Part shown: positions 148 to 30,356 of the stretch, piece by piece
Numbering within the stretch: position 1 is the first letter of the stretch
Layout: each line of letters opens with the position of its first letter
Source of the DNA: Squalus acanthias
Lineage: Eukaryota
Reading direction: 5' to 3'
Assembly (NCBI GenBank): GCA_030390025.1
Contig: JASTWF010000080.1
Location: forward strand, 124,001 to 188,000
DNA length: 64,000 bases
Notes under the pieces: model-generated
The model's input: the letters and a program-made list of their open reading frames with translations, nothing else
What the model was told of the DNA's origin: nothing
The model's database searches: none
Translations under genes and position numbers: made by a program

Positions 148-264
148 CTGAAAGGGGAAAGGGAGAAAACACAAACAGTAGACAGACACCGAATGGAATG
201 GGAGAACGGTTTCATAGATCTGTGAAGTTAGATCAGAACATGGGATAAAAACTGAAATCAATAC

Positions 265-540
265 CTTTCCTTTCAAAATATTCCTTTCCAGCTCGCAAAT
301 ATAATGTTAAATCATTAACAAATCCTTGTTCTAGATGTGCTTTCCAATACTTGTTCCAGGATTCATCCGAATTCCATTTCTCCATTGTCTTCACTGAATT
401 GTGATTGGTTGCGACCCATCTCATTCTGTCTGGCTCTAAACTAAGATAGTCCTTTCCGTCATATCCAACACGCATCGATCTCTTAATGGAGCCGTCGTCA
501 GTTATTTCAACAATTGAAATCCATTGAAAAATGTGAAGTC
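265..540 (-). CDS. MHC class I-like gene copy A, alpha2 exon
   Basis: 276-bp phase-1 exon bounded by ag and gt; GLHIFQW...GYDGKDYLSL...VKTMEKWN...LYLRAGKEYFERK; contains no cysteines. Confidence 0.94.
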
Positions 541-595
541 CTATCAATGACCAAACAGGGATCAATAATCAATAGTTAATGGAAAATCACAAATC

Positions 596-868
596 AGTCT
601 GATCAGAGGGGAAAGGGACTGTAGAATCAGGGGGAAATGGGGGGATAGAGTCACAGTCGGATCAGAGGGGAAAGGGGCTGTAGAATCAGGGGGAAATGGG
701 GGGTTAGAGTCACAGTCTGATCAGAGGGGAAAGGGACTGTAGAATCAGATAGAAATGGAGGGTTAGAGTCACAGACTGATCAGAGGGGAAAGGGACTGTA
801 GAATCAGATAGAAATGGAGGGTTAAAGTCACAGACTGATCAGAGAGGAAAGGGGCTGTAGAATCGGTA
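596..868. repeat. 59-bp minisatellite in copy A intron 2
   Basis: About 4.5 units of agtcacagtctgatcagaggggaaagggactgtagaatcag...; about 2 units at the paralogous site 24800-24925. Confidence 0.9.
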
Positions 869-1120
869 GAAATATCAGAAGGGTTCCCAGTGGAAGCTGA
901 TTATTGGACTTTTTTAAGTGAATTCAGAGACCAGCCTGAACCTTCCTATTAATGGGCAGAAGTTTAACGGAATGATTAATGGGAAATTGGGCAGAGATCC
1001 ATTATGTTACCCAACCAAGAGGGTTAAATCCCACTAGTGTAAGCAAAGGAGTAAATTCCCAGCACGGTAACAACATGAGTTAATTCCCAACACACTAACG
1101 GAAGGGGTTACTTCACAGAA

Positions 1121-2744
1121 TGGAGTGTCCCAGGGGTCAGTGCTGGGAGATGGACTGAGTGGAGTGTCCCAGGGATCAGTGCTGAGAGATGGGCAGAGTG
1201 CAGTGTCCCAGGGATCAGTGCTGGGAGATGGACTGAGTGGAGTGTCCCAGGGATCAGTGCTGGGAGATGGACTGAGTGGAGAGTCCCAGGGATCAGTGCT
1301 GGGAGATGGACTGAGTGGAGTGTCCCAGGGATCAGTGCTGGGAGATGGGCTGAGTGGAGTGTCCCAGGGGTCAGTGCTGGGGGCTGAGTGGAGTGTCCCA
1401 GGGATCAGTGCTGGGAGATGGACTGAGTGGAGTGTCCCAGGGATCAGTGCTGGGAGATGGACTGAGTGGAGTGTCCCAGGGATCAGTGCTGGGAGATGGA
1501 CTGCGTGGAGTGTCCCAGGGGTCAGTGCTGGGAGATGGGCTGAGTGGAGTTTCTCAGGGATCAATGCTGGGAGATGGACTGAGTGATGTGTTCCAGGGAT
1601 CAGTGCTGGGAGATGGACTGTGTGATGTGTCCCAGGGATCAGTGCTGGGAGATGGGCTGAGTGGAGTGTCCCAGGGGTCAGTGCTGGGAGATGGACTGAG
1701 TGCAGTGTCCCAGGGATCAGTGCTGGGAGATGGACTGAGTGGAGTGTCCCAGGGATCAGTGCTGGGGGCTGAGTGGAGTGTCCCAGGGATTAGTGCTGGG
1801 AGATGGGCTGAGTGGAGTGTCCCAGGGATCAGTGCTGGGAGATCGACTGAGTGGAGTGTCCCAGGGATCAGTGCTAGGGGCTGAGTGGAGTGTCCCAGGG
1901 GTCAGTGCTGGGGGCTGAGTGGAGTGTCCCAGGGATCAGTGCTGGGAGATGGGCTGAGTGGAGTGTCCCAGGGATCAGTGCTGGGAGATGGGCTGAGTGG
2001 AGTGTCCCAGGGATCAGTGCTGGGAGATGGGCTGAGTGGAGTGTCCCAGGGATCAGTGCTGGGAGATGGGCTGAGTGGAGTGTCCCAGGGATCAGTGCTG
2101 GGAGATGGGCTGAGTGATGTGTCCCAGGGATCAGTGCTGGGAGATGGGCTGAGTGGAGTGTCCCAGGGATCAGTGCTGGAAGATGGGCTGAGTGGAGTGT
2201 CCCAGGGGTCAGTGCTGGGAGATGGGCTGAGTGGAGTGTCCCAGGGATCAGTGCTGGGAGATGGACTGAGTGGAGTGTCCCAGGGATCAGTGCTGGGAGA
2301 TGGACTGAGTGGAGTGTCCCAGGGGTCAGTGCTGGGAGATGGACTGAGTGGAGTGTCCCAGGGATCAGTGCTGGGAGATGGACTGAGTGGAGTGTCCCAG
2401 GGATCAGTGCTGGGAGATGGACTGAGTGGAGTGTCCCAGGGATCAGTGCTGGGAGATGGGCTGAGTGGAGTGTCCCAGGGATCAGTGCTTGGGGATGGGC
2501 TGAGGGGAGTGTCCCAGGGATCAGTGCTGGGAGATGGGCTGAGTGGAGTGTCCCAGGGATCAGTGCTGGGAGATGGACTGAGTGGAGTGTCCCAGGGGTC
2601 AGTGCTGGGAGATGGGCTGAGTGGAGTGTCCCAGGGGTCAGTGCTGGGAGGTGGGCTGAGTGGAGTGTCCCAGGGATCAGTGCTCGGAGATGGGCTGAGT
2701 GGAGTGTCCCAGGGATCAGTGCTGGGAGATGGGCTGAGTGGAGC
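1121..2744. repeat. 39-bp minisatellite resembling the CR1 RT motif SGVPQGSVLG
   Basis: About 42 units of gagtggagtgtcccagggatcagtgctgggagatggact, with occasional shorter units. Confidence 0.95.
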
Positions 2745-3337
2745 GCTAGACATTGACCAGTACACATGCTTAAAAGGTCATTGCTTCAGCAGGAACATCG
2801 ACGCCTCCTCCCAACACGCATGCTCATTAGTGTTACGATCTGTTGAATGCTCTCCGCACATTCTCCATCAAGGAGTGAGTGCCTCTGTCCCTTACAGTCT
2901 TCACTGCCTTAACTCTCTGAGGTATTTATCACAGAGAGTCCCATTCTCCTTTCACACTGCCTCCTGGATTGGCATTGCCCATTCTGCTCTACTGGAGAAG
3001 ACCGATCTCACCCCCAGATATATGAATATACACCGAGACACAAAAAGAAGCCAGTAATTGCCCAACAAGCTTCCCTTTCCTGGATGATCTCAACCATCTC
3101 ACCATATTCTCAACTTGCTCTATCGCAAACCTCTCCTGATCTTCGTCAATGTGGACAGTACTTTGTAAATATCTCGATCAGAATAGGGAGAAGGAACAGA
3201 ATAACTGTCTGTGTGTCCCTGATTCATGGTGGCCATACACTATACAGTCCAGTGTTAGAATGCAGTATAACTATGGCTGGGTACCTGTCCGGCACCCATT
3301 AAACAGGGCAGGCAGTGGGAGATTCTGCTGATCTTAC

Positions 3338-3598
3338 CGGATGTCTGGTTTGTCCCCTTCATTATCGTATTCAGATTCTCCTTTGCCTTGCCTGACCGTG
3401 TGTTCCCGAGATCTGTGAGATATTCCCAGTATTCCACATCGAAAGCGTCTGCCATGAACTGCTGCCTGGGGATCATCCGACGGATATCAGTGTCATGATA
3501 ATTAAGTTGAACTCCCTTCACCATCGCAACATTAGTAACCTCGGGAAAGTCACTAATGCCAGAGATTGCTGTGTACATCACAGTAAGTGAGTTAGTGT
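3338..3598 (-). CDS. MHC class I-like gene copy A, alpha1 exon
   Basis: 261-bp exon, tttacag acceptor and gtaag donor; DTNSLTVMYTAISGISDFPEV...EYWEYLT...IMKGTNQTS with the N86-type glycosylation site NQT. Confidence 0.94.
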
Positions 3599-3880
3599 CT
3601 GTAAAATAAACAATTAAAGGGACAGGATAATAAACATTTACAAACACGATTCAAAGTGAAGCCCATTCACACAATGACAATCTCCAATAGTCCACCACTT
3701 TATCGCAACGTCTGATATTATAAACATAATACAATTAAACTGGGTCAGAATAAGATGGCTGCAGCCCCTCCAAACAGGGAGTAAACACGGAATCAGAGTT
3801 ACTGAGACGCCCGATGGAGTCCATGGGAATACGTGAGAGAGTCTGGGACACATTCAATGGGTTGGGGTGTTAAAGAGAAG

Positions 3881-4762
3881 CGGGGAGAAATTCAGTATCG
3901 CCCCATTTGGGGCGCAATTATCGGCCGGGCGCAAAGATTAGCGCCTGGCGCTAATTATCACCACCGACTGCAAACTTGACTTTTATCGCCCCTGGAGGTG
4001 ATTGCTGCGCTAAATCAGGCGCTTCACACCTGTCTTAAGGCTCAAAGGCCGAGGAGCGAGGCGCTACCTCAGAGCGCTGGCGAAGCTCATGTAATGTCAG
4101 TCAGCAATGGAACACACACACAATGGCGCGGGCCAGTTCTTAAAGGGGATGGTTAATCTTGCTTTCCATCCACATCCTGCTCATTGCAGCCTTGAATCTT
4201 GGCCTGGAGAGACCTGCACATCAAATCTGCTGGAACGAACAATGGAGAGTACCAGGCAAAGAGCTCAGATTGCAGCCCCCACAGTCTCTTCTAAATCAAT
4301 ACAAGGAATGGCAAATCAAAATGAACCTGCAAAGTGCTGCTCAGTACCCAAAACTCCTTCACACAGCGTTGAATCTCTACAGAAGTCTCTCTCTCTCTCT
4401 CTCAAAATGCGTAGTTCAAAAATGGCACCAACAATAAAAGGCAGGAAGCGGTCACCTTTAAATAGCGCTCCCCCTTTCCCTTCATGACTGCAGAACGCTC
4501 CCCTCAACCTGTTGTTGCTAGCGCCAGGCGGTAAGGCAGGGGGCGCCACTCAATATCCGCTCCGGGGCGATGCGCACTCGACTGACGTCACGATCTGTCG
4601 GCGCAGGAGATTGTGGCGGTAGTGTTTAGCGCCGCCGCAAAATGTCTAGTTAATTTCGCGAGCGGCGCAAACTTCGCCGCGCCTAGGCGCTAGATGCTTT
4701 GCGCCCCATTAGCGCCCTCTTAAGGTGCTAACGGGAGGCGCAACCAACTGAATTTTTCCCCC
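3881..4762 (-). mobile_element. Non-autonomous PIF/Harbinger deletion derivative of the 12530-16762 family
   Basis: TIRs CGGGGAGAAATT and GGGGGAAAAATT, 3-bp AAG on both flanks; both arms align with the ends of the autonomous element in reverse orientation; keeps the start of the Myb-like gene (MESTRQRAQ). Confidence 0.88.
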
Positions 4763-4764
4763 AA

Positions 4765-5200
4765 GATCTCTAACCAAGGAACAGTAACCTGGGACACACC
4801 TGTTCTATCTCTAACCTGGAACAGTAACCTGGGACACACCCGGTCTATCTCTAAACTGGAACAGTAACCTGGGACACACTCGGTCTTTCTCTAACCAGGA
4901 ACAGTAACCAGAGACACACCTGGTCTATCTCTAACCAAGGAACAGTAACCTGGGACACACCTGGTCTATCTCTAACCTGGAACAGTAACCTGGGACACAC
5001 CCGGTCGATCTCTAAACTGGAACAGTAACCTGGGACACACTCGGTCTTTCTCTAACCAGGAACAGTAACCAGAGACACACCTGGTCTATCTCTAACCAAG
5101 GAACAGTAACCTGGGACACACCCGGTCTATCTCTAACCTGGAACATTAACCTGGTACACACCCGGTCTATCTCTAACCTGGAACATTGACCTGGGATAAA
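4765..5200. repeat. 41-42-bp minisatellite
   Basis: About 10 units of tctctaacctggaacagtaacctgggacacacccggtcta; a second ~43-bp repeat follows at about 5220-5330. Confidence 0.9.
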
Positions 5201-5386
5201 TCCAACTCTATCTGAAACTCAACCAGGGGACATCTGGAGAGAGATATTGAGGAGACTCTCCTGACCAGGGAACATCTGGAGAGAGATGTTGAGGAGACCC
5301 TTCTGACCAGGGAACATCTGGAGAGAGGAATTGTGGATAACCCGTGGACAGGTCTGTTGTTTATCATCATAACCAGGAAACATGTG

Positions 5387-6668
5387 GGAATAAAAATTCG
5401 ATTGCCCTTGAAAACGGGTGCGGGGATCGCAACGCGCAATCAACCCGCACCCGGTCAAAGTACTGCAGGAAGCACGCAAACTTCGTGCTGTCTGGTAAAT
5501 ATGATTGTAACGTGCAGCCAACGCTTAACATGCTGTTGAGAGGCTGCACACCTCAGCAAGGGGTCCAAGTTCGTGCGAGGCTAGCACCACTTAAAGCTAG
5601 CCTGCACTACTTAAAGCCAGCCTGCACGTCTTAAAGGGGAGGTGCATTCTGGCTGCAGCAGGTACTGGAAGTCATTGTAGAGGTGTATGAGACCTACAGG
5701 AAGAATGAAGATGGTGCAACATGGCAGAGAGGGCTCCCAGATTTTCTGATGCAGTACTCGAGGGCCTGGTGCAGCAGGTGGACAGGAGGTGAGATGTCCT
5801 GAATCCACAGGGGACCAGGAGGCCCTCCAGACAAACTGTGAGAAGGCAATGGGAGCAGATAGCCGTCGTGGTCAATGCCAGCAGGGCAAGAAGTTTAATG
5901 ACCTCACGCCAGTGGTCACGGTCAGTGAATTCATCTTCAAATGCCACATCCTTACAACTGAACCACTGCTCAATTCATCACCCGCCCCTCCTTCACTCTC
6001 ACCTACCAACAAACTCCATCAATCACGATTCATACCTCACATTCATAGCACCACCTCACCCTCACAAACTTAGCACTGCTCAAGCCTCACACCCACAGCT
6101 CACACCTTGCACACACTGCCAGCTATTCAACCATGACAGCCACATCACCCAAACACAAAGGTGGATACAAACTACTGCACCCATGTCTGGGAGCAACTAA
6201 TCTAAGCAGAAGCCTTGAAGTAAGCTGCCACACCAATCCCTGGAGACTTCAGCAACTTCAAATAAGATAACAAACCACCAAACACTTCTACAAACTCACC
6301 AAGAGCCAGTAGAAATCAATCAGCACCTAACCTGAAAGCAGTTGATGGTCCCTTTAAATAGCGCTGGTGGGCGGTCCTCCCAGCATGTTCAGCTGTGTGT
6401 CTTTAAGAGAGGGCGTTAGCTGGAGTGTGGAGCTCAAAAATGGCAGCGCTGGCGTCAAATCACCATTACACACTGACTGACGTCACGATCTGCCTACCCT
6501 GCAAACTTCCGACGCACACTCCCAGCGCCCGCGCTAACAAACTACCCAAAATGGTGTCCGCGCGGCCCACACCAGAAGCGGGCGCGCGTGGCGCGGAATC
6601 CATTTTAGACACAAAACGCCACCCGTAGCACCAAAAAACCGAGCGCTACCGAGTCGAATTTCGCGGCC
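5387..6668 (+). mobile_element. Non-autonomous Harbinger-type element with decayed Myb/SANT exon 1
   Basis: Degenerate GG..AAATTCG termini with GTG on both flanks; 5711-5925 encodes broken PRFSDAVLEGLVQQVDRR...RRQWEQIA...KKFNDLT. Confidence 0.75.
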
Positions 6669-7302
6669 GTGCTGTGAGAGAATTCAGAAATGAACAGAAG
6701 GGAAACAGTGATATTTGGGAAGATGAAGTGCGATGCCATGGGGTGCGGTCACTCTAGGAACAGTCTGACTGTCGACCAGGGGTGATGGACAATCAGGGGC
6801 AGCAGCTCCACTGTGCTTCACAGATCCTGTAATGACCACTTTACACATGGGCAGTAGGGGCCCAAAGGATGTTGGTGGTGGATTGTCTGAGATAACCTGG
6901 CCTATTCAACCACGAGGGCATCACAGCTGAGCCTGGCGTGGGTTAAACATGGATTATCCTCCCCGCACAGTTCAGAACACTTTAGTCCAGGAGAGGTGAA
7001 GCTGTTTCCCGTCTCCCAAACAATGTGAACATTAAAATTGCCCATTTCAACCATTTTCCACTTGCTACAAGCCTCTCTGCTCTCCGTATTCCTGCGTGTT
7101 GCTGTCAGGAGGCCTGCGCACAACTCCCACCGCAGGCTGACGGCCTGTGCTGGCTCCAATGGTGTGAAATATCAGGCAGGATGTAGAACCGGCGGCCGAT
7201 CAAACATCACCCGTTTCAAACTCTCGCCAAAAGCTCAAAATCACCCACACACACAGAGAGAGAGAGAGAGAGTGAGAATGGAGGGATGAGTTCTGTACTT
7301 AC

Positions 7303-7354
7303 CGGGAGAGACCCAGGAAAAACACAGGGATATGGAGAAAAGGATCAGCAACAT
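7303..7354 (-). CDS. MHC class I-like gene copy A, leader exon
   Basis: ATG at 7354, hydrophobic signal MLLILFSISLCFSWVSP, phase-1 donor gtaagt; paralogue at 40738-40789. Confidence 0.9.
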
Positions 7355-7590: not shown

Positions 7591-7847
7591 AGAGTCAGCC
7601 TGTGAATCAGAAACTAGAGAGAGACTGAACCAGCCTGGGACACCAGCTCCAGTGTAAAGGGAGGAGACACTGAGATCCCGGGCTCCCCCTCACAGTGAAC
7701 ACACTGACACTGGTCCCCCTCCCCCGGAAACCTTAACACTGGCTCTGCTCCAGACTGGAGTAACACCACAACATCTTACAGTTATCGACCACATTTAATA
7801 GAGTGAACATCACACGGGACATCACAGAGCATCTCACCGAGCGGGGG

Positions 7848-9109
7848 AGAGTGAGGGGAGGGGGTCAAACTAACAGAGAGTGAGGGGAGGGGGTCAAACT
7901 AACAGAGAGTGAGGGGAGGGGGTCAAACTAACAGAGAGTGAGGGGAGGGGGTCAAACTAACAGAGAGTGAGGGGAGGGGGTCAAACTAACAGAGTGAGGG
8001 GAGGGGGTCAAACTAACAGGCAGTGAGGGGAGGGGTCAAACTAACAGAGAGTGAGGGGAGGGGTCAAACTAACAGAGAGTGAGGGGAGGGGGTCAAACTA
8101 ACAGAGAGTGAGGGGAGGGGGTCAAACTAACAGAGTGAGGGGAGGGGGTCAAACTAACAGAGAGTGAGGGGAGGGGGTCAAACTAACAGGGAGTGAGGGG
8201 AGGGGGTCAAACTAACAGGGAGTGAGGGGAGGGGGTCAAACTAACAGGGAGTGAGGGGAGGGGTCAAACTAACAGAGTGAGGGGAGGGGGTCAAACTGAC
8301 AGGGAGTGAGGGGGGGGGTCAAACTAACGGAGTGAGGGGAGGGGGTCAAACTAACAGAGTGAGGGGAGGGGTCATACTAACAGGGAGTGAGGGGAGGGGA
8401 TCAAACTAACAGGGAGTGAGGAAAGGGAGTCAAACTAATAGAGAGTGAGGGGAGGGGATCAAACTAACAGGGAGTGAGGGGAGGGAGTCAAACTAACAGA
8501 GAGTGAGGGGAGGGGATCAAACTAACAGGGAGTGAGGGGAGGGAGTCAAACTAACAGAGAGTGAGGGGAGGGGGTCAAACTAACAGAGAGTGAGGGGGGG
8601 GAGTCAAACTAACAGAGAGTGAGGAGAGGGGGTCAAACTAACAGGGAGTGAGGGGAGGGGTCAAACTAACAGGGAGTGAGGGGAGGGGATCAAACAGGGA
8701 GTGAGGGGAGGGGGTCAAACTAACAGGGAGTGCGAGGAGGGGGTCAAACTAACAGAGAGTGAGGGGAGGGGTCAAACTAACAGAGAGTGAGGGGAGGGAG
8801 TCAAACTAACGGAGTGAGGGGAGGGGGTCAAACTAACAGGGAGTGAGGGGAGGGGTCAAACTAACAGAGAGTGAGGGGAGGGGGTCAAACTAACGGAGTG
8901 AGGGGAGGGGGTCAAACTAACGGAGTGAGGGGAGCGGGTCAAACTAACAGAGTGAGGGGAGGGGGTCAAACTAACAGGGAGTGAGGGGAGGGGGTCAAAC
9001 TAACAGGGAGTGAGGGGAGGGGGTCAAACTAACAGGGAGTGAGGGGAGGGGGTCAAACAAACAGAGAGTGAGGGGAGGGGGTCAAACTAACAGAGTGAGG
9101 GGAGGGGGT
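7848..9109. repeat. 29-bp G-rich minisatellite upstream of copy A
   Basis: About 43 units of gagagtgaggggagggggtcaaactaaca. Confidence 0.95.
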
Positions 9110-9838
9110 TGTAAGATTTCAATTGATCTCAGAGTTCTTGGACAAGACACCAATAGGCAGCAGCCAGTAAGTTTGAGCAATAGATCAGATTTATTAAGCT
9201 TACAGCGTAATCAATACTTAACAACAGGCGATAGTTTTAACGAGTAGCTCGCAGACCTTGGTCTCTGGAGCCTCTCGGACACAGATGACGTCGTCTTAAG
9301 TCTGTTCCTTTGTTCTCGCAGTAAGTCTGTGTAAAGTTGTTCTTTGAGTGTCGAGGTCTTAACCCTTTTCTCATCAAAAGTTCGCTTGGCCAGTGTCCAT
9401 AGTCTTTAACAAATCATCTTCTTTAATTGGTTCCAATGGTCAAAATACCATCGTCACTCAGACTAAGGGTAGCTTCTTGCCTTTCCAGTATTTATCCTGC
9501 AACTTTACCCTGTTCATCGTTATCTTGTTTATAGTTCTTCACCCCATTGGAATTCATCTTATCTCTCTTATTCTAGGTTCCCTGGTACAAGCAGTGTTAA
9601 GGAAACTCTAATTAAGCTTAGCATTATAATACATTATTTACCAATTTAACCTTCACTCGCAGCCTGTGGCTGTTTGTTATCAGAGCTGAGTCAACACTGC
9701 TTTTGACTGTCTCCGCGGCTATATTCGAACAGTCTTTAATGTTTCCATACCCACAGGGAATTATGGGTAAGATTAGTTGGTCAATGGCTACCCTTGAATT
9801 TATACATGAGATTTCTCTAAATACCAGTCTTTCGTACA
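9110..9838 (-). repeat. 3' LTR (729 bp)
   Basis: TGTACG...CTTACA on the minus strand, preceded by a polypurine tract, poly(A) signal near its end. Confidence 0.7.
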
Positions 9839-10259
9839 GTCCCCACCTCGAGGATGAAATGTTTCAAACATTGATTCCTCGACTATTTCAATCTATTCTC
9901 TGACAAGCGTTGTTGCAAATTGGAGTCCTGTAATTGAGGGGAACGGAGCGCTTCTCAAAGGAGGTTTTATCCCCCTTGTCATTATAGGTCTGGGTTCTAA
10001 CTATGACATTCCCAGGGGCCGACCCTTTACTATTGTCATGGCTGAGGGACACCCCGGGGTCTCCCTAACCATCATGTCGGCCGTGCTGAAATGCCTTTCC
10101 TTCCAGTGCGTCCCAGTCTATCATTTCTCCTCCGCCCGCTGCTCCTACTGCTGAATCATACGATCTGGCAGTGGTGACCCTGATCTGACCCCGCCTGGGT
10201 CTCCTCTACATTGCTTCGGATCTTCTCTTTCGGTGTACTTAATTAATTTGTTGGTGCTG

Positions 10260-10745
10260 CTTAATCATAGGCATGAGTACACAATTGGCTTATCCATCGA
10301 AGTCTTACTACACGGGTTACATATATCAAATACACTATCATTACAAGTTGGACAACTAACTGAGCGTGTGAATTAATTCGAACCTAAGGGTGTGCTGATA
10401 TATTAAGCCCAATATCCCACCAGTGTGAGTTTCCCCTATGCTGTTAATTTCAATATCTATTCTCGAGTTGTCTTGCTCCAAAACATCAAAATGCTTCAGG
10501 GAGGAGTTCAGTCACATCATGAGCTCACTGAAACCCTCAGACAACAGGGGACTGTAGTATCCGAATTGTGCCACATAATTGTGCAGCTCATACTTAAGTA
10601 TCTCATTTACTGTCAGTTTCACTTGAGCATAGGTTTTGATATTGAGTAAAACGAGTTGGTTGATGGGACAGGTCCTGTTCGACCCGTAGATCATGGTAGT
10701 TGCGGTAGTAGTGACACAGGAGGCACCACCAAAACCACCTCATTC
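10260..10745 (-). pseudogene. env-like C-terminal remnant (heptad, Trp-rich and TM segments)
   Basis: Broken frames CVTTTATTMIYGSNRTCPI...LNSSLKHFDVLEQDNSRIDIEINSIG / HWWDIGLNISAHP*VRINSHAQLVVQLVMIVYLIYVTRVVRLR; splice acceptor ttttgtag near 10780; lies at the env position upstream of the PPT. Confidence 0.5.
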
Positions 10746-13041
10746 TGGATTCGTTCTGGTTTTTCCCACGAGCTGTTACCTACAAAACACAATTATTACA
10801 GTCACAGTTAAATTCAGTCTTACAATCATTTCACGCGACAACTAATCAACAAATCAGATCTCTCTTTTACTCGTATCCATCTTGTGGATAATTCATGTTA
10901 AACATGATTTCTCCTCAGCGCTCAATTGTCCCAATCCAAATTTCATGTAACTCTCCACTTCAACTACGATTTCATTCCCTCTAACAGGTACCAGTGTGTT
11001 TAACTCTATTCTGATTGTTTCATTAGTTAGATAGTCTCTCGATGGAGTATGCGTCAATGCTTTAAAAGTTGTCTCACTCTCCTGAGCCACATTAACCATT
11101 TCATGTCGGGCTGTTGTCAAGTAACTGAGCATGTCTGAGACCCGTTCTTCAGTGCAGATTTACCATATATTTCCGGATGATAATTGCTCCATACGCACAA
11201 ATCACATTTGCACACTTGTACCGGTATCTCAATATCATGCCAAACGTGCCATCCGATACAAGCCACTCTCGGGCTTTCAGATGATCCTATCAAAAGATTG
11301 TAGTTGTCTGGAGATCTTTGCTCATCTTCCTCTGCATGGTCCCGATGTCTTGGGTAGTGGCCAGACTATCAATTCAGTTTTCTTAAAAAGTACATAGGCA
11401 AGACACAAATGTCTCCAAGAGAAAGCTGTCAATTTACTATTTGTAACTACACTTTCCTGACTTTCACTAGAAAGTTAGGAACATTTCCATTTGATGGTGT
11501 AATTCTCCTGTTTCTATCTTACACCCTCAATCACTTCCTCTCTCCATTTTACACATCCCATTAATTATCATTCATATCTCATTCATGAGCCCTGGAGGAA
11601 CTTTACTGTCCAGTACAATATTTACGATAGAAAACCATAGATCAAACATTCTCACTTGGTCCAAGTTATTAACATTTTTTATTTATCATTATTTTAGAGG
11701 ATCTTTTATTTTCCCAAAAGTAACCCAATATATAGTGCCTGAGTCCATTTTGTCATTTCAAAATTATCCCAAAATCCAAACAGCAGTATTGTTGAACTGA
11801 TCGGTTTTGTCAATGTTCAATTTCATTTCTATCAATTTATCTTATCAATTCCAATTTCAGAAACAAGTGATTCTCAGGCTAGGTGGTTTACACAGTGTTT
11901 TAACATTAGAGACAGAAGTGTTACAATTAGTTTACAAGATAACTTCCATATAACAAAAGAAAGCAGGGAATCCATTGTGGCTCTGCTTAAGAGCCCAAGG
12001 GGTTAATTTATCACATCATAATTTACCTTGTGTCAATCTGGGGAAATATTAACTTAAAATTAAGAAACTTAAGTTTAATAATGTCCAATATCTTTAAATT
12101 TCATTCAGCAATACTAAAGTTGTTGCTCGGTGAACTTAAACAGCTGTCAGTGGAAAGGGTTAACTCCTTTGCAGGTTTTTAAGAAGGTGGAGCGAAACAT
12201 TGTCAGGCGCACGCAATTGCGTCACTTTGCGTAAATTTAAAAATACTTTCGCGATCGAAAAAGACAGTTGTGTTTTCACACTTTAACTAAACACGAACAG
12301 AACAGATAAAACAAAACAAAACAGCACATGCTTGCAGGAAACAGTAAATTACGTCATATTTCTTATTGTCCTTTCTTCAGATGCCTTTCCAAATGACTGT
12401 AAAAACATTGAATACAACTGGAGAAAAATTAGTTTTTCACATTCAAACAAATCAAATCAAATCAAACCGCTTTGGAAGATTTCACCATAGCAACCACGAT
12501 TCCAAGGTTAAATCTTAGACGGAAACTTAGGGGTAAAAATTCAGTTGGTTGCGCCTCCCGTTAGCGCCTTAAAAGGGCGCTAATGGGGCGTTAAGGCGCT
12601 AACGCCCGGGCGCAGCGCTGTTTGCGCCGCTCGAGAACTTAACTTGAGATTGTGCGGCGGCGCTAAAGCTTACCGCTGCGACCACCTGCGCGCGCAGATT
12701 GTGACGTCATTCCGTGGTGCAACGCCCTTGGGGCGCCCCGGAGCGGAAATTGAGTGGCGCCCCCTGCCTTACCGCCTGGCGCTTCCAACGACCGGAAGAC
12801 TGGAACGTTATCAATCGGTGTGGGGCTGGGGGGGGCGCTATTTAAAGGGGGCCTCTTCCTGTCTTTTTCTGTGGTCGACATTTATGCACCACTCGTTCTG
12901 AGAGAGAGAGAGAGATTCGGAGAGAGAGAGAGAGAGACTTCTACATTGACTCAACGCTTTGTGAGGTAGTTTTGCCTAGTTCATCCTAACTTTGCTGCTA
13001 CTTTCGTTGCTGTACCTCATTACTTTTCTGGCAAAGAGAAT

Positions 13042-14202
13042 ATGGGGGCTGCAATGATTGGGGGCGTCGTCCTGCTCCAGCTCAATCGGAGGATAGTGAG
13101 ACGCAGACAGAGAGTGGCAATGATGGCCAGACGGAGGAGGGCCATCAGGCGCATGTACAGGAGAGCTTACCCTCCCAGGGTATATCGTGAACAGCTCTCC
13201 TACATCCACATGTCCGAGGAGCTGTGTTTGCGAAGGCTGCGATTCAGCAAGGAGGTGGTCACTGAGCTCTGCCACCTGCTGCAGCCAGATCTGCAGCCTC
13301 AGCTGAGGTCCAGGACGTCTCTGTCGATGGCAGTGAAGGTCACAGTGGCTTTGAACTTCTACGCCACTGGCTCATTCCAAGCTGCTGTTGGGGACCTCGC
13401 CAATATCTCCCAGTTTGCGGTGCATCGCTGCATCCGGCAGGTCACCAATGCCCTCTTCACAAGGAGACGAGACTTCATCTCCTTCCCTATGACCCCAGAC
13501 AAGCAGCATGACCGTGCTATGGGCTTTGCGAGGGTAGCGGGCTTCCCCATGGTGCAGGGCGCCATTGACTGCACGCATGTGGCTTTGCGTGCTCCGCGAG
13601 AGAATGCAGAGGAGTTCCGGAACAGAAAGGGGTTCCATTCCTTGAATGTGCAGTTGGTCTGTGACCACAGACAGGTGATTCTCGCTGTCAATGCCCACTA
13701 TCCGGGCAGCTGCCACGATGCTTTCATCCTGCGCCAGAGTACTGTGGCAGAAATTTTCGACGCACCGCATCAGCCAGTTGGTTGGCTTCTGGGGGACAAG
13801 GGGTACGCATTGAGCACCTGGCTGATGACACCGCTCCGTGCGCCAAACACCCCTGCTGAGCTGCGGTACCAGGAAAGCCAACAAGCAACCAGGAACATTA
13901 TTGAGCGCACAATCGGCGTGCTCAAACAACGATTCCGCTGTCTGGACCATTCCGGAGGAGCCCTGCAGTACTCGCCTGAGCAAGTTTCCAAATTCGTAGT
14001 GGTGTGCTGCATGTTGCACAACATGGCAATCCTCAGGACGCAGCCAATGCCACCAGGCCTTGCAGCACCACAAGAGGAGGAGGAGGAAGAGGAGGAACAG
14101 GCCGAGGACGATGATCAGCAGCAGCACCAAGGCAGGAGGGCGGCCCACAATGGTCAAACTGCAAGGGCCGTCCGTCAACGACTAATAGCAAGCCGCTTCT
14201 AG
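13042..14202 (+). CDS. Harbinger DDE transposase (HARBI1-like), intact 386-aa ORF
   Basis: Motifs GAIDCTHV, NRKGFHSLNVQLVCD, PGSCHDAFIL, LLGDKGY, RNIIERTIGVLKQRFRCL, CCMLHN. Confidence 0.96.
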   Translation: MGAAMIGGVVLLQLNRRIVRRRQRVAMMARRRRAIRRMYRRAYPPRVYREQLSYIHMSEELCLRRLRFSKEVVTELCHLLQPDLQPQLRSRTSLSMAVKVTVALNFYATGSFQAAVGDLANISQFAVHRCIRQVTNALFTRRRDFISFPMTPDKQHDRAMGFARVAGFPMVQGAIDCTHVALRAPRENAEEFRNRKGFHSLNVQLVCDHRQVILAVNAHYPGSCHDAFILRQSTVAEIFDAPHQPVGWLLGDKGYALSTWLMTPLRAPNTPAELRYQESQQATRNIIERTIGVLKQRFRCLDHSGGALQYSPEQVSKFVVVCCMLHNMAILRTQPMPPGLAAPQEEEEEEEEQAEDDDQQQHQGRRAAHNGQTARAVRQRLIASRF

Positions 14203-14496
14203 GGCCCCTGCCATTGCTACAAACACGAATCAACCCAGCACGCAACCCCTAAGCCGGCCAAGGCACCAATAATTCCAACCACCAGCCATGTATATTTTGA
14301 ATACAGAAACTTATTTATTGTACAAACTCTGTGTGTGTCAATTCCTCATGACAAACTCATAGAAATAAACACAAAAAAACAGTCAATAACATAACTGGTT
14401 CTCACAACCTGGAGATAATGTCCAAAACACTAAACAAAAGTTGGGCCATGAACCTCGGCCTTTAATAAAAAAATGACCAGCATTTTGGCACACCTC

Positions 14497-16405
14497 CTAC
14501 TTTTTGCCCTTCGAGGGTGATCTCCTTCCCTTGCGCACTTCCCCCCTTCTAACCCTACTGCTCCTCCGTAATGGGACCTCAGTGGCTGCAGCAAGGCTGG
14601 TGGAAGGCTGCTGCTTGTCAGACCCTGACACTGCAGATGCCCCTGAAGGACGGCCTCGACCACTTCTGGGCCTGGAGGGCCCGGCTGCAGACTGCACCAA
14701 CTCTGCATGGGCGGCAGCAGTCTGTCCTACAGGCGGTGGCAAGTGCAGTGGAGAAGTGACAGTGTTGGCAGCAGGAATGCTGTCATCGTGAGAGAGGACA
14801 GCAACTCCCTGCTCGCCCGACACACTGGCACTCCCACGGGGCAGCACTTCAGCATCCGGAGCAATTTGCCGGAGAACAGATTGCTGGCCTGCTGCGGCGC
14901 GGTGACAGCCCCAGGGACATGTGCACGAACCATCGAGGATGGCAGCAGTCAGTGCTCGCGTGGCCTCAATCTGAGTCTGCATGAGAGCAGTCTCAGATGG
15001 GTTCCTGGCAGCCAGTGACTGAATTGCAGCACTAAGCTTTAGTGTGGCATCCGCCTGTGCTACAGCGAAGTGCTCCACACTCCTTGCCAGTGTCTCAATG
15101 CATTCGGGCACCCTTCCCACTGCACCCATGAGCTCAGTGTGCATGCCCACCGCCTGGCTGTTCATTTCTGCAATCAGCCGCTCCTCCTCTGCGTCCATTG
15201 CATTAGGAGTGTCTGGCATACTCTCCCTCTGGGGAGAAGGCTCCCGTTCTTCCCTCCCCCCCCATGGCGTGGCTGCAGCCCGCTGGGTCCTGGAGCTTCA
15301 CCATCATCAGCCCCTTCCCCCCTGCTCCCCCGTTCTTCCCTCCCCCCCCAATGGCGTTGCTGCAGCCCGCTGGGTCCTGGAACTTCACCATCATCAGCCC
15401 CTTCCCCCCTGCTCCCCTCCGGGGAAGGCGTGTTCCCAGTGTGGCCATGGGCTTCCTCGGGAGAGGGTGGCACTGATGCTCCGGCTTCCTCTTCCTCCTC
15501 AGCTGCAGCATCACTCCCAGTGGCAGCTTCAGGGACCATCTCCTCAGCTGGTGAATCACCATCTGAAAGCAGGGAGGTACAAGAGTGGCTTTAGCGTGAG
15601 GACAGGGTGGCAGTAAGGGAGGAATAAGTGCAGCGAGTTAGCAAGTTGGATTGAAAGTGTCAAAGGCTGGTATTGTGAGGGACAAGTGGAAGGACAGAGG
15701 ACAAAAAGGTGATGACCTTACCATTGCTGTCCACAACGGGGTCGGCGTCCCCAGTGGCGACGGGACCGATCACCCGGCTTGCCACAATCCTGTGGACGCG
15801 CTCCTCCAGATCGCTGAGGGGTTGCAGCTGAAGCCGCCCTCCACCCGTCCGTTGCTGCTGTCTCCGATTATGAGCCAGCTTAGCCTGCAAGAAAAAGGAC
15901 AGCATCTGAGTCAATATACAGCCATGGTCTTGCCTGATGTGCCTCCCATAGGTGAATAGCCCTTACAATATGCAGCCATGGTCTTGCCTGATGTGCCTCC
16001 CATAGGTGAATAGCCCTTACTGTATGCAAAGTGTGGAATGTGTGTGTGTGTTTGATGAAAGGGCCATAGGTGTTGCATGAGTGTTGTGCATTGGGGTTTT
16101 AAGACCCTCTGGCCATAGAGTGAGGTTGAGATGGAGGGATGGAGAGGTATTGAGAAAAAGCCACTCACCCTGACGACCCGAGTGAGGTCGTTGAACTTTT
16201 TGCGGCACTGAACATGGGTCCTGGGCACCATGCTCCTGGAGGAGACGCTCTGAGCCACCTCCCTCCACACTCTTCTGAACTCGCGTGGCAAAGGCCTCCT
16301 GCCACTCTCCGGGAACAGCATGCATCGTCTGCGCTCCACTGCGTCAACCAGAGCATCCAAGGCCCGCTCGGTGAAGCGATGAGCGCGTTCTCTCACCCTC
16401 TCCAT
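14497..16405 (-). CDS. Harbinger Myb/SANT-like DNA-binding protein; exons 16405-16169, 15884-15722, 15562-14497; 1-bp frameshift near 15260
   Basis: RAHRFTERALDALV...WREVA...RTHVQCRKKFNDL, then AKLAHNRRQQQRTGGG; canonical splice sites in phase; basic C-terminus LRRSSRVRR. Confidence 0.88.
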
Positions 16406-17538
16406 GCTTGGCAGCAAAATGGATTACAGGTCTCTCCAGGCTGAGATTCAAGGCTGCAATGAGCAGGGTGTGGCTGGGGAGCAAGTGGCCCCCCCCGCTT
16501 TAAGAAGTGTCCGGCGCCAGTGTGTCTGTGTTCCCTCGCTAACTGGCAGCAGCTGCGCTGCGCTCGTGCGCTGAGGTAGCGCCTCACTCCTAGGCCTTTG
16601 CGCCTTAAGAGAGGTGTGCAGCGCCTAATTTAGCGCTCCACTCACCTCCCGGGGCGGTAAAAGTGAAGTTTCCTGTCAGTGCCGATAATTAGCGCCAGGC
16701 GCTAATATTTGCGCGCGGACGATATTTGCGCCCCAAATGGGGCGCGACCTAATTTCTACCCCTTAATCTTTTGTTAAACAAACTTTTTGTTTTTCTCAGT
16801 TTTTCCACACCAGCTTAAATTAAATTGTAATTCAAGGGTTTCTTTCCAATTCTTGGGGCACAATCTTATTCGCACATTCTTAAAACTTCCAAAATCCAAC
16901 ACAACACAAAAGGGTTAAACGCTTTTAACACAGAGATGTGGGTGGAGCTAAAACACACATAATAGACACTTTTTGTTTTAAAGACAAACTTTCAGACAAA
17001 AGGAATACTGTAACTTCTTAAACATTCATAGTTAGGAAAACTTTTACACTTTAACACACACTTCCACACAAACTGAAATTCCAGCATTTTTTTAAGGTTC
17101 CTTTCACTCAGCAAATCTTGTGTTTTATTTGTTTCAGCACAGACGTTAATAACTTCCATGTCAGTGAAACTTTAAGTTTCTCTTTTTATTTCTTTTTTTA
17201 AATCGACGTCTCAGCAGCTTTTCCTGGCTTTCCAAATCCCTGTTTTTTTCCTTTTCTTTGCTGAATTTTCAGATTGGTTAGCCTGCAATTTAGATTTTTT
17301 TCCTTCTCTATCTCCCCACTCTCCCTCCTGCACTTTATGCTTCACCTCCTTCAGGCTATCTATCAACTGTTCCCAGTGATATGCCAACGCCATTGTATTT
17401 CTGGTTTTACTTTTTAACACGCTCTTTCCCGCTCCCTTCTTTCAGAGAGAAAAATACTCAGTCTAAGCAACGATCACGTGCGTTTGACCAAGTCCCTCTG
17501 GTCCCCACAACCAGAACCTTACAACGCCCAACTCTGTG

Positions 17539-17556
17539 ATCCCACTTCTGACACCA
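17539..17556 (-). other. Primer-binding site complementary to the tRNA-Leu 3' end
   Basis: TGGTGTCAGAAGTGGGAT, 1 nt from the LTR terminal ACA. Confidence 0.9.
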
Positions 17557-17557
17557 C

Positions 17558-18293
17558 TGTAAGATTTGGATCACAGGTCACACACAGATTACCCAAAGGT
17601 TCTTAGGAGTTGTAAGGCTTTTTATTAAAGAGCTACAGTTTAAAGCATAATCAGATATTACTACATGTGATTGAAATAGATACAGTAGACACACAACCCG
17701 TGACAGATGAGGGCGATCTACGGCCCTAGAATGGAACGAAACAACTGGACAGACGGGGAGGCAGTACGGTGGTCTCGGATTGGCTGGATTCCTGCAGTCT
17801 GCGGTCACTTCCGTTGGGTCATCCCTCGAGCTGTAGGAGGTGTTAGGCCGCAGCCACCTTGGGGAAGCCTTCGCCCCTAACTGCCTGATTTCCTCTCTCG
17901 GTCATCTACTTTTATAGTTATTTCGGTGGGCTGGTGATTACCTGGTGACAATCATTTTTTCTCCATCCCATTGTTCAATTACAAGGGAGAGATTACCTCT
18001 GACAGCCCCCTCCCAGTGTCATGAGGTCATTTTCCTCCTTATCTCTGTTCTAAAGGTCTTGTTGCCCTCTTGGAGATAGCTTGTTTATCCCACAGCTCCT
18101 TGCTACATCCCGTATCAGGCCTAGTTATGTCCACTCGAAGGCCTGTTTTTGTGTTCTGACATCATAATTCAGCTCTCTGTACAGCTATTTTTCTGACATG
18201 ACTGGAATCTTTCTGTGTCATCAACTTAGGCAAACTGCTGATCGAGGGAACCCGTAACAGACTATTATTTCTTTCAATCCATGATTTCTTACA
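17558..18293 (-). repeat. 5' LTR (736 bp)
   Basis: Inverted termini TGTAAGA...TCTTACA, TATAAAA and AATAAA, adjacent PBS. Confidence 0.85.
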
Positions 18294-18821
18294 AGTGTCT
18301 GGGAGGGTGAGACGGGGTCAGGAGGGGAGTGAGATTAGTCTGACCGGGTTGAACAGGGTCTGGAAGGGTGAGACGGGGTCAGGAGGGGAGTGAGATTAGT
18401 CTGACAGGGTTGAACAGTGTCTGGGAGGGTGAGTCGGGGTCAGGAGGGGGAGTGAGATTAGTCTGACAGGGTTTAACAGTGTCTGGGAGGGTGAGACGGG
18501 GTCAGGAGGGGAGTGAGATTAGTCTGACAGGGTTTAATAGTGTCTGGGAGGGTGATACGGGGTCAGGAGGGGAGTGAGATTAGTCTGACAGGGTTTAACA
18601 GTGTCTGGGAGGGTGAGACGGGGTCAGGAGGGGAGTGAGATTAGTCTGACAGGGTTTAACAGTGTCTGGGAGGGTGAGACGGGGTCAGGAGGGGAGTGAG
18701 ATTAGTCTGACAGGGTTTAATAGTGTCTGGGAGGGTGATACGGGGTCAGGAGGGGAGTGAGATTAGTCTGACAGGGTTTAGCAGTGTCTGGGAGGGTGAG
18801 ACGGGCTTAGGAGGGGAGTGA
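18294..18821. repeat. 61-bp minisatellite
   Basis: About 8.5 units of gtgtctgggagggtgagacggggtcaggaggggagtgagattagtctgacagggtttaaca. Confidence 0.95.
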
Positions 18822-21075: not shown

Positions 21076-21085
21076 TGATTCTTAC

Positions 21086-21199
21086 CTCTCCGTTGTTTTA
21101 TCCAGATGAATATTCCAATTATCCCGATTATAACCAGTGCAGCGACTGATCCAATTATAATTCCAGGATAGGAGCGTGCACCACTGTTTTCCGGTATTT
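21086..21199 (-). CDS. MHC class I-like copy B, transmembrane exon
   Basis: tttcag acceptor and gtaag donor, 114 bp, phase 1; EIPENSGARSYPGIIIGSVAALVIIGIIGIFIWIKQRR (absent from the ORF track). Confidence 0.92.
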
Positions 21200-21270
21200 C
21201 TGAAACACATTTGAATAATATCAAGGTAGTCTTTCTTTTCCCGGATCCATTCCCAGTTCGGTGTCAACGG

Positions 21271-21455
21271 AGGGACAATTTTAACCTCACCCGCCCGTCG
21301 GGAATCTGAGGGATCGGGTCCAACGCTGGTTTTACTCCCGCCTGATCTCACTCTCCATTGGAGTCAATAAAGAGTCTCATTGATGGTGGTGTTGGACCGG
21401 CGTTGCCCCGATCCCCGGGTTACCTGCCCGGCGAGCTCGGTTCAATTTACCCCCC
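21271..21455. mobile_element. Short palindromic MITE (related copy at about 24594-24763)
   Basis: Imperfect TIRs GGGACAATTTTAACC...GGTTCAATTTACCCCC. Confidence 0.55.
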
Positions 21456-21499
21456 ATGTCTCTGTGTCCTGTCCTGGGTCCATCCCCAGGGTCACATTG

Positions 21500-23800
21500 T
21501 ACGCCCCAGGAGTCAGCATCACTGATGGATTTCACATCAAACTTCAAAGGGATGGGGAATAAATTGACTGCAGCAAACTGGGCTGAGCTGGTAATGAGTA
21601 AAGCTACAGATAAACAGTGGGGACGCTTCAAAAAAAGTACCGGGTACAATCCAACACCAGGACTTTCCCCGACAACGCAAAGACTCCACTTCTGTAGTTA
21701 GGCAACCATGGTCGACAAATGAAAGAAGTGAGAGTATCCAGGTAAAGGGAAAGGCTGACACAGTGACCAGAGATTGAGATACAGAGCACTTAGACAAGTA
21801 TCGGCTGAACAGAGAGTCAGCATGGATTTGTGAAGGGTAGGTCCTGTCTGACTAATCTAATTGAATTTTAAATTTCATGAGGAGGTCACTAACATGGTGG
21901 ATAAGGGAGTGTCGGTGGATGTTGTGTATATGGACTTTCAGAAGGCATTTGATAAGGTTCCTCACGAGAGATTATTAGCAGAAATAAAAGCTTACAGATT
22001 TGGAGCTAATCTTGTGACACGGGTTGAAAATTGGTTGGGAGGAAGGAGTCAGAGAATCGGGATAAAGGGAATGTGCTCCGATTGGCAGGATGTTCCGAGT
22101 GGTGTTCCCCAGGGATCTGTACTGAGGCCTCAGCTTTTCACCATATATATCAATGACTTGGATGAAGGAACAGGGAGTTGTATATCCAAGTTTACAGATG
22201 GCACTAAGTTAGGATGCACAGTAAAGGGACATTGACAGATTAAATGACTCAACTGCATCTGCCACAGTTTTGCCCAAGGTGGGGAAGTGTGAGATCATCC
22301 ACGCGAGATCTGAGAAAGACAGATTGGAATATTGTCTCAATGGTGACAGACCAGGAGCTGTAAAGGAGCAAAGAGATTTGGGTGTCCATGTCCACAAATC
22401 ACTAAAAGCTCGTGCCAGGGTTAAATAAAGCAATCAGAAAGGCTAACGGAATGTTGGCCTTAATCTCAAGGGGGTGAGAATAGAAAGTGAGGAAATTATG
22501 CTTCAGGTGTACAGAGCTTTGGTCAGACTACATTACATTACACAGGATTACATAGGATATACGGCACAGAAACAGGCCATTCGGCCCAACCAGTCCATGC
22601 CGGTGTTTATGCTCCACTCGAGCCTCCTCCCATCTTTCCTCATCTAAATCTATCAGCATAACCCTCTATTCCGTTCTCCTCATATGTTTGTCCAGCCTCC
22701 CCTTAAATGAATCTATACGATTCGCTTCAACCACTCCCTGTGGTAGCGAGTTTCACATTCTCACCACTCTCTGGGTAAAGAAGTTTCTTCTGAATTCCCG
22801 ATTGGATTTCTTGGTGACTATCTTATATTGATGGCCTCTATGCTCTTCCCCACAAGTGGAAACATTTTCTCTGTATCCAGTCAATCAAATCCGGTCATAA
22901 TTTTATAGACTCTATTAGGTCACCCCTCAGCCTTCTTTTTTTCAAGAGAAAAGAGACCCAGCCTGTTCATCCTTTCCTGATATGTATACCCTCGCATTTC
23001 TGGTATCATCCTTGTAAATCTTCTCTGCACCCTCTCCAGTGCCTCTATATCCTTTTTATAATATGGCGACCAGAATTGTACGCAGTACTCCAAGTGTGGT
23101 CTAACCAAGGTTCAATACAGGTTTAGCATAACTTCACTACTTTTCCATTCTATCCCTCTAGAAATAAACCCCAGTGCTTGATTTGCTTTTTTGATGGCCT
23201 TGTTAACCTGTGTCGCAACTTTTAGTGATTTGTGTATTTTACTCCGAGATCCCTTTGTTCCTCTAACCCACCTCTGGCGTACTACATTCAGTTCTGGGCA
23301 CCAAACCTCACGTAAGATATATTGGCCTTGGAGGGGGTACAGAGCAGATTCACCAGAATGATACCAGCTCAGAGGGTTACATTTTGAGGACAAAGTTGGC
23401 TTGTATTGCACTGAGTGTAGAAGGGTGAAGGGTGATCACATTGAGGTGTTTAAAATGATAAAGGGATTCGATAGGGTAGATACAGAGAAACTATTTTCAC
23501 TTGTGGTGAATCCAGAACAAAAGAGCACAATTTTACAATTAGAGCTCGGACATTTAGGAGTGAAATCAGAAAGCACTTCTTCACACAAAGGGCAGTGGAA
23601 ATCTGGAACTCTCTCCCCCAAAAGTCTGTGGGTTCAATTGAAATTTTTATGACTGAGATCGAGTGATTTTTGTTGGGTAAGGGTATCAAGGGATGTAGAG
23701 CAATGGTGGGTAAATGGAGTTGAGGTACTGATCAGTCATGATCTCATTGAATGGTGGAACAGACTCAAGGGGCCGAATGTCCTACTCCTGTTCCTATGAT
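21500..23800 (+). mobile_element. Decayed CR1 LINE (+) with a second CR1 3' end inserted antisense (about 22530-23275)
   Basis: DVVYMDFQKAFDKVPH, SGVPQGSVL, LEYCVQFWSP motifs; CR1-type 3' tails at about 23800 (+) and about 22535 (-). Confidence 0.88.
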
Positions 23801-23849
23801 CCATACATGCTCACAGAGACACACGCACACATCCAGTGCAGTTCCTTAC

Positions 23850-24128
23850 CCCACCGATAGACCTTTGCCTCTGCCAGGCTGCTGTGTTTAATTTGACAGG
23901 AGTATTGATCCTCATCCCCAGCATTCACTTCAATCTCTTTCTTGATCTGATGGGTCCCATTGTGGTTCGGTCGAACCCCCGAGGAGTGGCTCTCAGACAC
24001 TGGCTCTCCATTCCTTAGCCAGGTCACCTCGATGTCTACAGGGTAAAATCCAGTAACCAGGCAGGAGAGAGTGGGCGGTTTGTACTGAATATTGGGGTCA
24101 CTTCTGGAGATGAACACTTCGGGCTGAA
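23850..24128 (-). CDS. MHC class I-like copy B, alpha3 (IgC1) exon
   Basis: 279 bp; LSCLVTGFYPVDIEVTWLRNG...YSCQIKHSSL; gtaag donor. Confidence 0.95.
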
Positions 24129-24245
24129 CTGAGAGGGGAAAGGGAGAAAACACAAACAGTAGACAGACACCGAATGGAATGGGAGAACGGTTTCATAGAT
24201 CTGTGAAGTTAGATCAGAACATGGGATAAAAACTGAAATCAATAC

Positions 24246-24521
24246 CTTTCCTTTTGAGATACTCCTTTCCAACTCGCAAATATAAATTTAAAAGGTCAAC
24301 AAGTTCTTCTTCCAACTGCCATTTCCAATGCTTGTTCCAGGATTCATCCGAATTCCATTTTTCCATTGTCTTCACTGCAATGTCACTGGATGCGACCCAT
24401 CTCATGCTGTCTGACTCTAAACTAATATAGTCCTTTCCGTCATATCCAAACCGCATCCATCTCTTCATGGAGCCGTCGTCAGTGACATCAACAGTCCTTA
24501 TCCATTGGAAAATGTGAACTC
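24246..24521 (-). CDS. MHC class I-like copy B, alpha2 exon
   Basis: 276 bp; GVHIFQWIRTVDV...FGYDGKDYISL...KTMEKWN...LYLRVGKEYLKRK; contains no cysteines. Confidence 0.95.
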
Positions 24522-25019
24522 CTATCAGTAACCAACCAGAGATCAATAATCAATAATTAATGGGAATGTCTCTTTATAACTCAGACAGTAGTTGGGGGCA
24601 ATTTTAACCGAATCCGCCGGTTGGGAAACTGATGGTTCTACACCCGGTCCGAGGTTACACCAAATTGGAGTCAGTGGAGAGCAATCTTGGTCAGGGTGTA
24701 AATTTAGTGTTCCACCCAATCCTGTGGGTTTCCAGCCCGGTGAGTTAGGTTAGAATTAGCCCCAGTGGCTCTTTCTATCTCTCTACGGTAATGGGATGGG
24801 TTAGAGTCACAGTCTGATCAGAGGGGAAAGGGGCTGTAGAATCAGGGGGAAATGGGGGGTTAGAGTCACAGTCTGATCAGAGGGGAAAGGGGCTGTAGAA
24901 TCAGGGAGAAATGGAGGGTTAGAGTTGTTAACCCCTTCTGAACCATGACAGAATAAAAAGACAATAACAAGGTAAATTTCAGGTAAAATTCACCATTTTT
25001 ATCACATGAGGCGAAAGTT

Positions 25020-28823: not shown

Positions 28824-28885
28824 AATGAATTAATTCCCAATAGACAGGCATTAAACTGACGTCAGCAGGAGATGACTGATCTTAC

Positions 28886-29146: not shown

Positions 29147-29267
29147 CTGTCAAATAAACAATTAAAGGGGCAGGTTAATACAGATTTACACACACTACCA
29201 CCTGATCAAAGTGAAGCCCATTCACACAATGACAATCTCCAATAGGCCACCATTTCATCTCAACATC

Positions 29268-30346: not shown

Positions 30347-30356
30347 GTAAGATTAT

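Follow-up and report, generated by a model that had tools for sequence, protein, structure and literature searches.

The 64,000-nucleotide stretch of Squalus acanthias DNA analysed here (the window; contig JASTWF010000080.1, positions 124,001 to 188,000) contains a retroelement at 9110-18293 on the minus strand, lying between MHC class I genes, whose two long terminal repeats (LTRs) belong to different families. The element is a chimera: its 5' LTR, primer site and leader come from a family that we call A, and its 3' tail and 3' LTR come from a second family, B. The same chimera is present in six units of a class I gene array and goes back to one founding event, followed by amplification to at least six copies. 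Our preferred explanation, held with somewhat better than even confidence, is that the chimera was made once, when an A element located downstream of a class I gene recombined ectopically with a B element located upstream of that gene, and that it is the seam of the first tandem duplication.

In its own direction the element reads LTR-A, primer binding site (PBS), core, polypurine tract (PPT) and LTR-B. It reaches ~9.2 kb because a 4.2-kb Harbinger DNA transposon has inserted into it. LTR-A starts with TGTAAGAAATCATGG and LTR-B with TGTACGAAAGACTGG, both end with AAATCTTACA, and the PPT (GAGGTGGGGAC) directly adjoins LTR-B. The window copy has the TG...CA termini, PBS and PPT of a normal LTR element, and the coordinates and lengths given to the LTRs in the preliminary description, where PBS and PPT delimited repeats of 736 and 729 bp, were right. 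Many public (Logan) contigs, from runs that each contain at most 38% of the words of the stretch, diverge into unrelated flanks at 18293, which confirms the LTR-A end; among the 32 Logan pieces listed per look, no contig bridged the junction between LTR-A and the adjoining 61-bp minisatellite or spanned the element, and no RNA run was among those listed. The parts of the element and its immediate flanks are listed below (TSD, target site duplication; ORF, open reading frame).

18294..18821, no strand: 61-bp minisatellite bordering LTR-A on the outside, 3' of the right class I gene
17558..18293, minus: 5' LTR, family A, 736 bp; TGT...ACA, TATA-like motif at nt 378, AATAAA at nt 668
17539..17556, minus: PBS, 18 nt, complementary to the tRNA-Leu 3' end, one base after LTR-A
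17289..17557, minus: A-type leader; ~200 bp without counterpart in B elements, then 8 A-diagnostic columns as far as 17289
16763..17288, minus: shared core, 5' piece; weak best change point from A to B near 16913-16857
12530..16762, no strand: Harbinger DNA transposon with TTA TSD and terminal inverted repeats, in array unit 6 only
15911..16423, minus: Harbinger Myb/SANT-like ORF, first part (E 5.8e-9)
12970..14202, plus: Harbinger transposase ORF, 410 aa stop to stop (DDE_Tnp_4, E 9.6e-38)
10193..12529, minus: shared core, main piece; ~90-95% identity to A-type and B-type elements alike, without a Pfam domain in six frames
10303..10730, minus: env-like C-terminal remnant, broken, in two frames; coiled coil, Trp-Trp motif and transmembrane segment
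9839..10192, minus: B-type 3' tail, B1 subfamily, without an 85-bp segment; ends in the PPT at 9849-9839
9110..9838, minus: 3' LTR, family B, 729 bp; TGT...ACA, AATAAA at nt 644
7847..9109, no strand: 29-bp minisatellite, the outer flank of LTR-B, beside the class I promoter

A chimera of two element families

Reverse transcription normally yields an identical LTR pair. In the window copy, LTR-A and LTR-B have no significant local alignment: no BLAST hit at word sizes of 11, 7 or 4 fell below E 0.79, and a local score of 24 is inside the shuffle range (21.5 +/- 2.5). The preliminary description, in which the LTRs share their termini only and cannot be aligned internally, thus holds for local alignment and needs to be qualified by a faint global signal. 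The global alignment of the interiors scored -329 against -407 +/- 23, exceeding all 150 dinucleotide shuffles and all 54 genomic controls, and A x B pairs taken across the families also scored higher than reversed controls. These scores suggest that the two LTR families may have a very distant kinship or a common layout. An old LTR pair that diverged in place is ruled out, since both LTRs have dispersed relatives in their respective families with 93-94% identity. With LTRs this unlike, there is no risk of taking the junction for that of an ordinary provirus.

Each LTR was searched against its own genome, as had been suggested at the outset, and each proved to belong to a dispersed family with 4-bp TSDs and matched pairs. 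The searches gave 2023 first-look candidates for LTR-A and 1709 for LTR-B, 40 of each being scored. LTR-A was found at 24 loci outside the array, 6 of them linked to internal sequence; the 18 unlinked loci have an exact 4-bp TSD in 15 cases and one with a single mismatch in 2, and 1 could not be parsed. At ten full-length unlinked LTR-B loci, a count that excludes variants aligning only from position 32 onward, the 4-bp TSD is exact in 6, has one mismatch in 1 and is absent in 2, with 1 unparsed. Matched A-core-A and B-core-B elements both exist and enclose one core; where both ends could be parsed, the TSD was exact in 7/13, had one mismatch in 4/13 and was absent in 2/13. The primer motif corresponds to tRNA-Leu in A and to tRNA-Arg in B (ARAGORN, 1/4 and 3/4 fetched loci, respectively). 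A and B are distinct families of non-autonomous LTR elements; both make 4-bp TSDs and have the same core of ~2.9 kb, and each uses its own tRNA primer.

Some further arrangements of these sequences were seen in the genome. The core also occurs with other 5' and 3' ends unlike the A or B leader (loci L097-L106 and L111-L121). One A-type element (L186, G000:C12), with LTRs 74-83% alike and no TSD, is possibly a recombinant within family A. At another locus (L215, G000:C6), a 5'-truncated B element is preceded, 3 kb upstream and in the same orientation, by an LTR-A end with an A leader; these are neighbours of the sort able to yield a deletion chimera.

The window copy carries one end of each family. 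Its first 200 internal bases occur in A elements only, and in the next 70 bp eight of nine diagnostic columns are A-like, the ninth being like neither family. Its last 340 internal bases occur in B elements only and bear the marks of the B1 subfamily, namely an 85-bp gap and nine columns common to 7/7 B1 copies and found in 0/12 other B copies. An A leader joined to a B tail, with both parental types extant, makes the window copy chimeric. The preliminary description had proposed a chimera of two related elements; the matched parental types, the common core and the missing TSD all agree with it. It had also called for the internal crossover to be located. Diagnostic sites bound it between 17289 and 10192 and give no firm position; fine mapping was unsuccessful, since A and B can hardly be told apart in the core.

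Mixed A/B elements were looked for outside the array. We fetched 68 elements by their ends (20 anchored in the A leader, 20 in the B tail, 20 in the A tail and 8 in the B leader), a sample that comprises top matches only and some segmental duplicates of one another. Typing at both ends succeeded for 9 A-leader, 14 B-tail, 11 A-tail and 4 B-leader elements, the last from a small sample of 8 loci of 5.5 kb, and 0 of these 38 elements were mixed. Many genomic copies with the same LTR pairing, which the preliminary description named as the sign of a novel element type, were accordingly not seen among the typed elements.

One founding event and six class I units

Chimeras of the A...B type start at contig positions 6834, 34511, 53811, 92994, 113002 and 133110, each between class I genes, in an array with a unit spacing of 19-39 kb. 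Both junctions are identical in all six copies. LTR-B adjoins the promoter-side 29-bp minisatellite (29-mer), and LTR-A adjoins the 61-bp minisatellite (61-mer) past the 3' end of the next gene. All six copies have CACT and ACCC as their 4-bp flanks, without a TSD, and the early reading of the flanks as two different minisatellites was accurate. Identity among the six copies is 96.8-99.8% for the core, 96.5-99.3% for LTR-A and 97.2-99.7% for LTR-B; identity to outside copies is at most 94.5% for LTR-A and at most 93.3% for LTR-B. The array copies form a single clade in the LTR-A tree (support 0.999) and in the LTR-B tree (1.0), the latter with five copies since an insertion splits the LTR-B of unit 1. 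The junction had been suspected to be the breakpoint of a duplication or deletion in the array. It is a junction inherited by every unit rather than one peculiar to this gene pair, and the type of the founding event is inferred in the next section.

Nested insertions differ among the chimera copies. The Harbinger transposon at 12530-16762 is missing from the other five, and joints bypassing it are present in Logan contigs; found in unit 6 only, it was inserted after the array had expanded. It looks full-length, with an open 410-aa transposase frame, and short Harbinger derivatives lie in intron 1 of unit genes (window 3882-4762). A 6-kb insert in the 61-mer of units 1 and 3 (contig 12712-18717 and 63178-69627), with AGGA on both sides, contains a direct repeat of 860 bp (93%) along with frames for RNase H and integrase (H2C2, rve) and is a second, different retroelement.

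At informative sites, the units that share a state switch along the element, from U3+U5 to U1+U5 and U1+U3, which points to continuing exchange between units, also within the element. In two non-adjacent unit genes (contig 44868-48102 and window 233-3560) the alpha1 and alpha2 exons are 100% identical; the flanking elements of the same two units differ by ~3%, suggesting a recent exchange of the peptide-binding exons.

Class I domains were confirmed in the genes flanking the element. The two genes and a related site without an element are located as follows.

251..7354, minus: left class I gene; leader exon with ATG at 7354, alpha1 at 3312-3590, alpha2 at 251-544, alpha3 just before the window
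21076..40789, minus: right, terminal class I gene; alpha3 at 23842-24123, alpha2 at 24232-24525, diverged alpha1 at 28869-29138, leader ATG at 40789
41327..41382, no strand: element-free paralogous 29-mer site of ~2 units, running into sequence unrelated to LTR-B or the 61-mer

LTR-B ends 1,756 bp upstream of the ATG of the left gene, on the same strand. The 3' block of the terminal gene is 97-98% like that of the array units, and the leader, alpha1, alpha2 and alpha3 exons are stop-free in five complete unit genes and in the terminal gene. Beyond the unrelated sequence, the element-free 29-mer site leads head-to-head to another leader exon and not to a gene tail. Elsewhere on the contig, class I paralogues at 199679-206918, 330372-337270 and 696170-704683 have a leader exon and alpha3 with no alpha1 or alpha2 match between them and are likely internally deleted. 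An array of 84-bp repeats at window 53584-54784 looks, from its period and by eye, to be of C2H2 zinc-finger type.

Probable origin of the junction

The flanks of the chimera are two different insertion sites, as indicated by the two minisatellites and by the paralogous 29-mer site that is free of an element. With LTR-B at the promoter-side minisatellite and LTR-A at the 3'-side one, the junction is what unequal recombination in the core would be expected to leave. A B element would have inserted in the promoter-side 29-mer and an A element, in the same orientation, in the 3'-side 61-mer. Unequal crossing-over within the core, at some point from 17289 to 10192, would then have joined the 3' half of B to the 5' half of A and left one gene copy on either side of the chimera. 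The unit was amplified to at least six copies with ongoing exchange, as shown by the trees and informative sites. Recombination of the array ends with diverged paralogues may have removed the parental halves, or these may lie off the contig. That recombination acted after integration, whether by duplication or by deletion, is highly probable.

The duplication is the less certain part, and several observations weigh against it. Exact-pattern searches of the assembly for the parental half-sites gave 0 matches, and the contig starts inside the array. That the A element lay downstream of this particular gene is our inference, and the 61-mer was not found beside any class I paralogue outside the array. 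A missing TSD is not peculiar to the chimera, as 2/13 matched-LTR elements lack one too. Both array ends have diverged 5' regions (80-89%), requiring extra events. The join between the 61-mer and the gene block is of two kinds, one in units 1 and 3 and the other in units 2, 4, 5 and 6, and could be another seam. A likelihood scan for the crossover peaks near 16913-16857; this peak is weak, a similar downstream profile being present in 4/10 true A elements.

The 3' ends of the genes give some indication of polarity. The 234 bp between the 61-mer and the gene 3' block occur in the array only, and four outside paralogues have the 3' block (96-98%) without the 61-mer. In three of them a young dispersed 466-bp repeat adjoins the 15-mer, where the array has unique sequence; in the fourth the sequence next to the 15-mer is unreadable. 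The repeat at this position modestly favours the array state as the older one.

A deletion is the most serious competitor to the tandem duplication, although we consider it clearly less probable. An A and a B element, situated between a pair of older class I genes or both upstream of a single gene, would have lost the spacer between them, and the array would have been founded later by a crossover elsewhere, in the alpha2-alpha3 region, the 15-mer or the 61-mer. This course of events predicts an identical junction and agrees with the absence of the parental halves and with the two kinds of 61-mer/gene-block join. The terminal gene also fits, having the array 3' block together with a diverged 5' half and an element-free 29-mer. 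However, the leftmost promoter region is 80-89% like that of the units and is not the pure left parent that a deletion would lead one to expect, and the element-free 29-mer site leads head-to-head to another leader exon rather than to a gene tail. The 3' block, 96-98% alike in all paralogues, marks no single parent.

An origin before integration is improbable. Co-packaged A and B RNAs could have given a mixed element at reverse transcription, or a multi-LTR complex could have collapsed, with a single integration in either case; the mosaic-looking core, common to A, B and further end types, does point to earlier recombination between families. A single integration would be expected to show a 4-bp TSD and one target site, whereas the flanks differ, in the same way in six copies, and consist of two different minisatellites. 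The element-free 29-mer site does not run on into the 61-mer, and reverse transcription normally makes both LTRs alike.

An assembly misjoin through the repetitive core, as might be suspected in an unplaced and repeat-rich contig, is very unlikely given six copies of 96.5-99.8% identity with their own nested insertions and a tree-like history, and an uninterrupted core of only 3.5 kb in unit 1. Least probable of all is a new type of mobile element with two unlike LTRs: the pairing is common to six copies, but these share their flanks and all lie in one array, none of the 38 typed outside elements is mixed, and there is no TSD.

The core and comparison with known systems

The core is 3.5 kb long where uninterrupted (unit 1) and abundant in the genome (8581 first-look candidates). 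A Pfam search of nine frames, read with X at stops, found no domain in it, and hence no gag-pol and no reverse transcriptase (RT) or integrase. An unaltered 157-aa frame of another core copy matched 10 proteins in a full HMMER search (best E 3e-15), the five named ones being from sharks and a ray. By tblastn (E 8e-13 to 4e-5), the shark and ray proteins align with window 10730-10303, in two frames, and one of the 10 matched proteins has a Baculo_F match below the cut-off (E 0.0011). Judging by the env-like matches, the core probably descends from an LTR element that carried env and had an F-like envelope. A strict first-look search of the genome for PF00523 gave 0 matches, word-index protein searches found nothing, an Rfam search gave 0 matches and a PDB search nothing significant; no helper (autonomous) element was found. 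Having no pol and mismatched LTRs, the chimera is predicted to be immobile. In a B-type copy at another locus (L205, G000:C3300, ~1807-10000), a different LTR element with 468-bp terminal repeats (99% alike) is nested; its long frames include one with a zinc knuckle and an env-like one that has 37% identity to the core remnant, and there is no RT domain in the three frames scanned.

F-type env is described in lokiretroviruses (PMC7947760) and errantiviruses (10.1101/2023.10.26.564294). The shark core keeps a broken env-like C-terminus but no pol, and can therefore not be placed by RT. The lokiretrovirus abstract does not name cartilaginous fish as hosts (PMC7947760).

Directly oriented human endogenous retroviruses (HERVs) recombine to give deletions and reciprocal duplications (PMC4195946). 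As in this HERV-mediated nonallelic homologous recombination, where the substrates in direct orientation are shorter and less identical than classic low-copy repeats, the shark crossover is bounded by informative differences. The HERV partners are homologous over their full length, whereas the shark partners share the core only and have unalignable LTRs and different tRNA primers; unlike those cases, the shark junction is fixed and amplified in a gene array. Non-paired LTRs are an accepted sign of recombination after integration (PMC3228705; PMC2672092). They are read in this way in HML-2, where intact direct repeats are used to exclude recombination; the HML-2 LTR subgroups, however, align well with each other, and LTR-A and LTR-B do not. 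Loci with three LTRs keep their TSDs (PMC3625200), in contrast to the shark chimera.

The closest parallel in genomic setting is HERV16, which is part of primate class I duplicons and has been reported at the breakpoints of alpha-block duplicons (PMC2625394). In both arrays there is a retroviral element in each class I unit, with a spacing of 21-27 kb in primates and 19-39 kb in the shark. The element and the host are unrelated, and the available text on HERV16 places LTR16D at both ends and mentions no two-family chimera, so the resemblance would be due to convergence. Multicopy lineages exist among elasmobranch class Ib genes (PMC10751288). Searches of open-licence papers listed no comparable shark case.

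The mechanism itself is established, and the present case is neat rather than surprising. Its value lies in being an unusually legible fossil of a retroelement-mediated rearrangement, which tags every unit of the array and makes the origin of the class I expansion directly testable. Our findings suggest that retroelement-seeded duplication of class I genes, as in primates, has also taken place in cartilaginous fish. A bolder proposal, which we regard as unlikely, is that the seam founded the multi-copy class I array convergently with the HERV16 duplicons and that LTR-B, located 1.8 kb upstream of every gene copy in sense orientation behind a variable minisatellite, acts as a promoter or enhancer. 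If LTR-B were regulatory, the seam would have both multiplied the gene and altered its expression.

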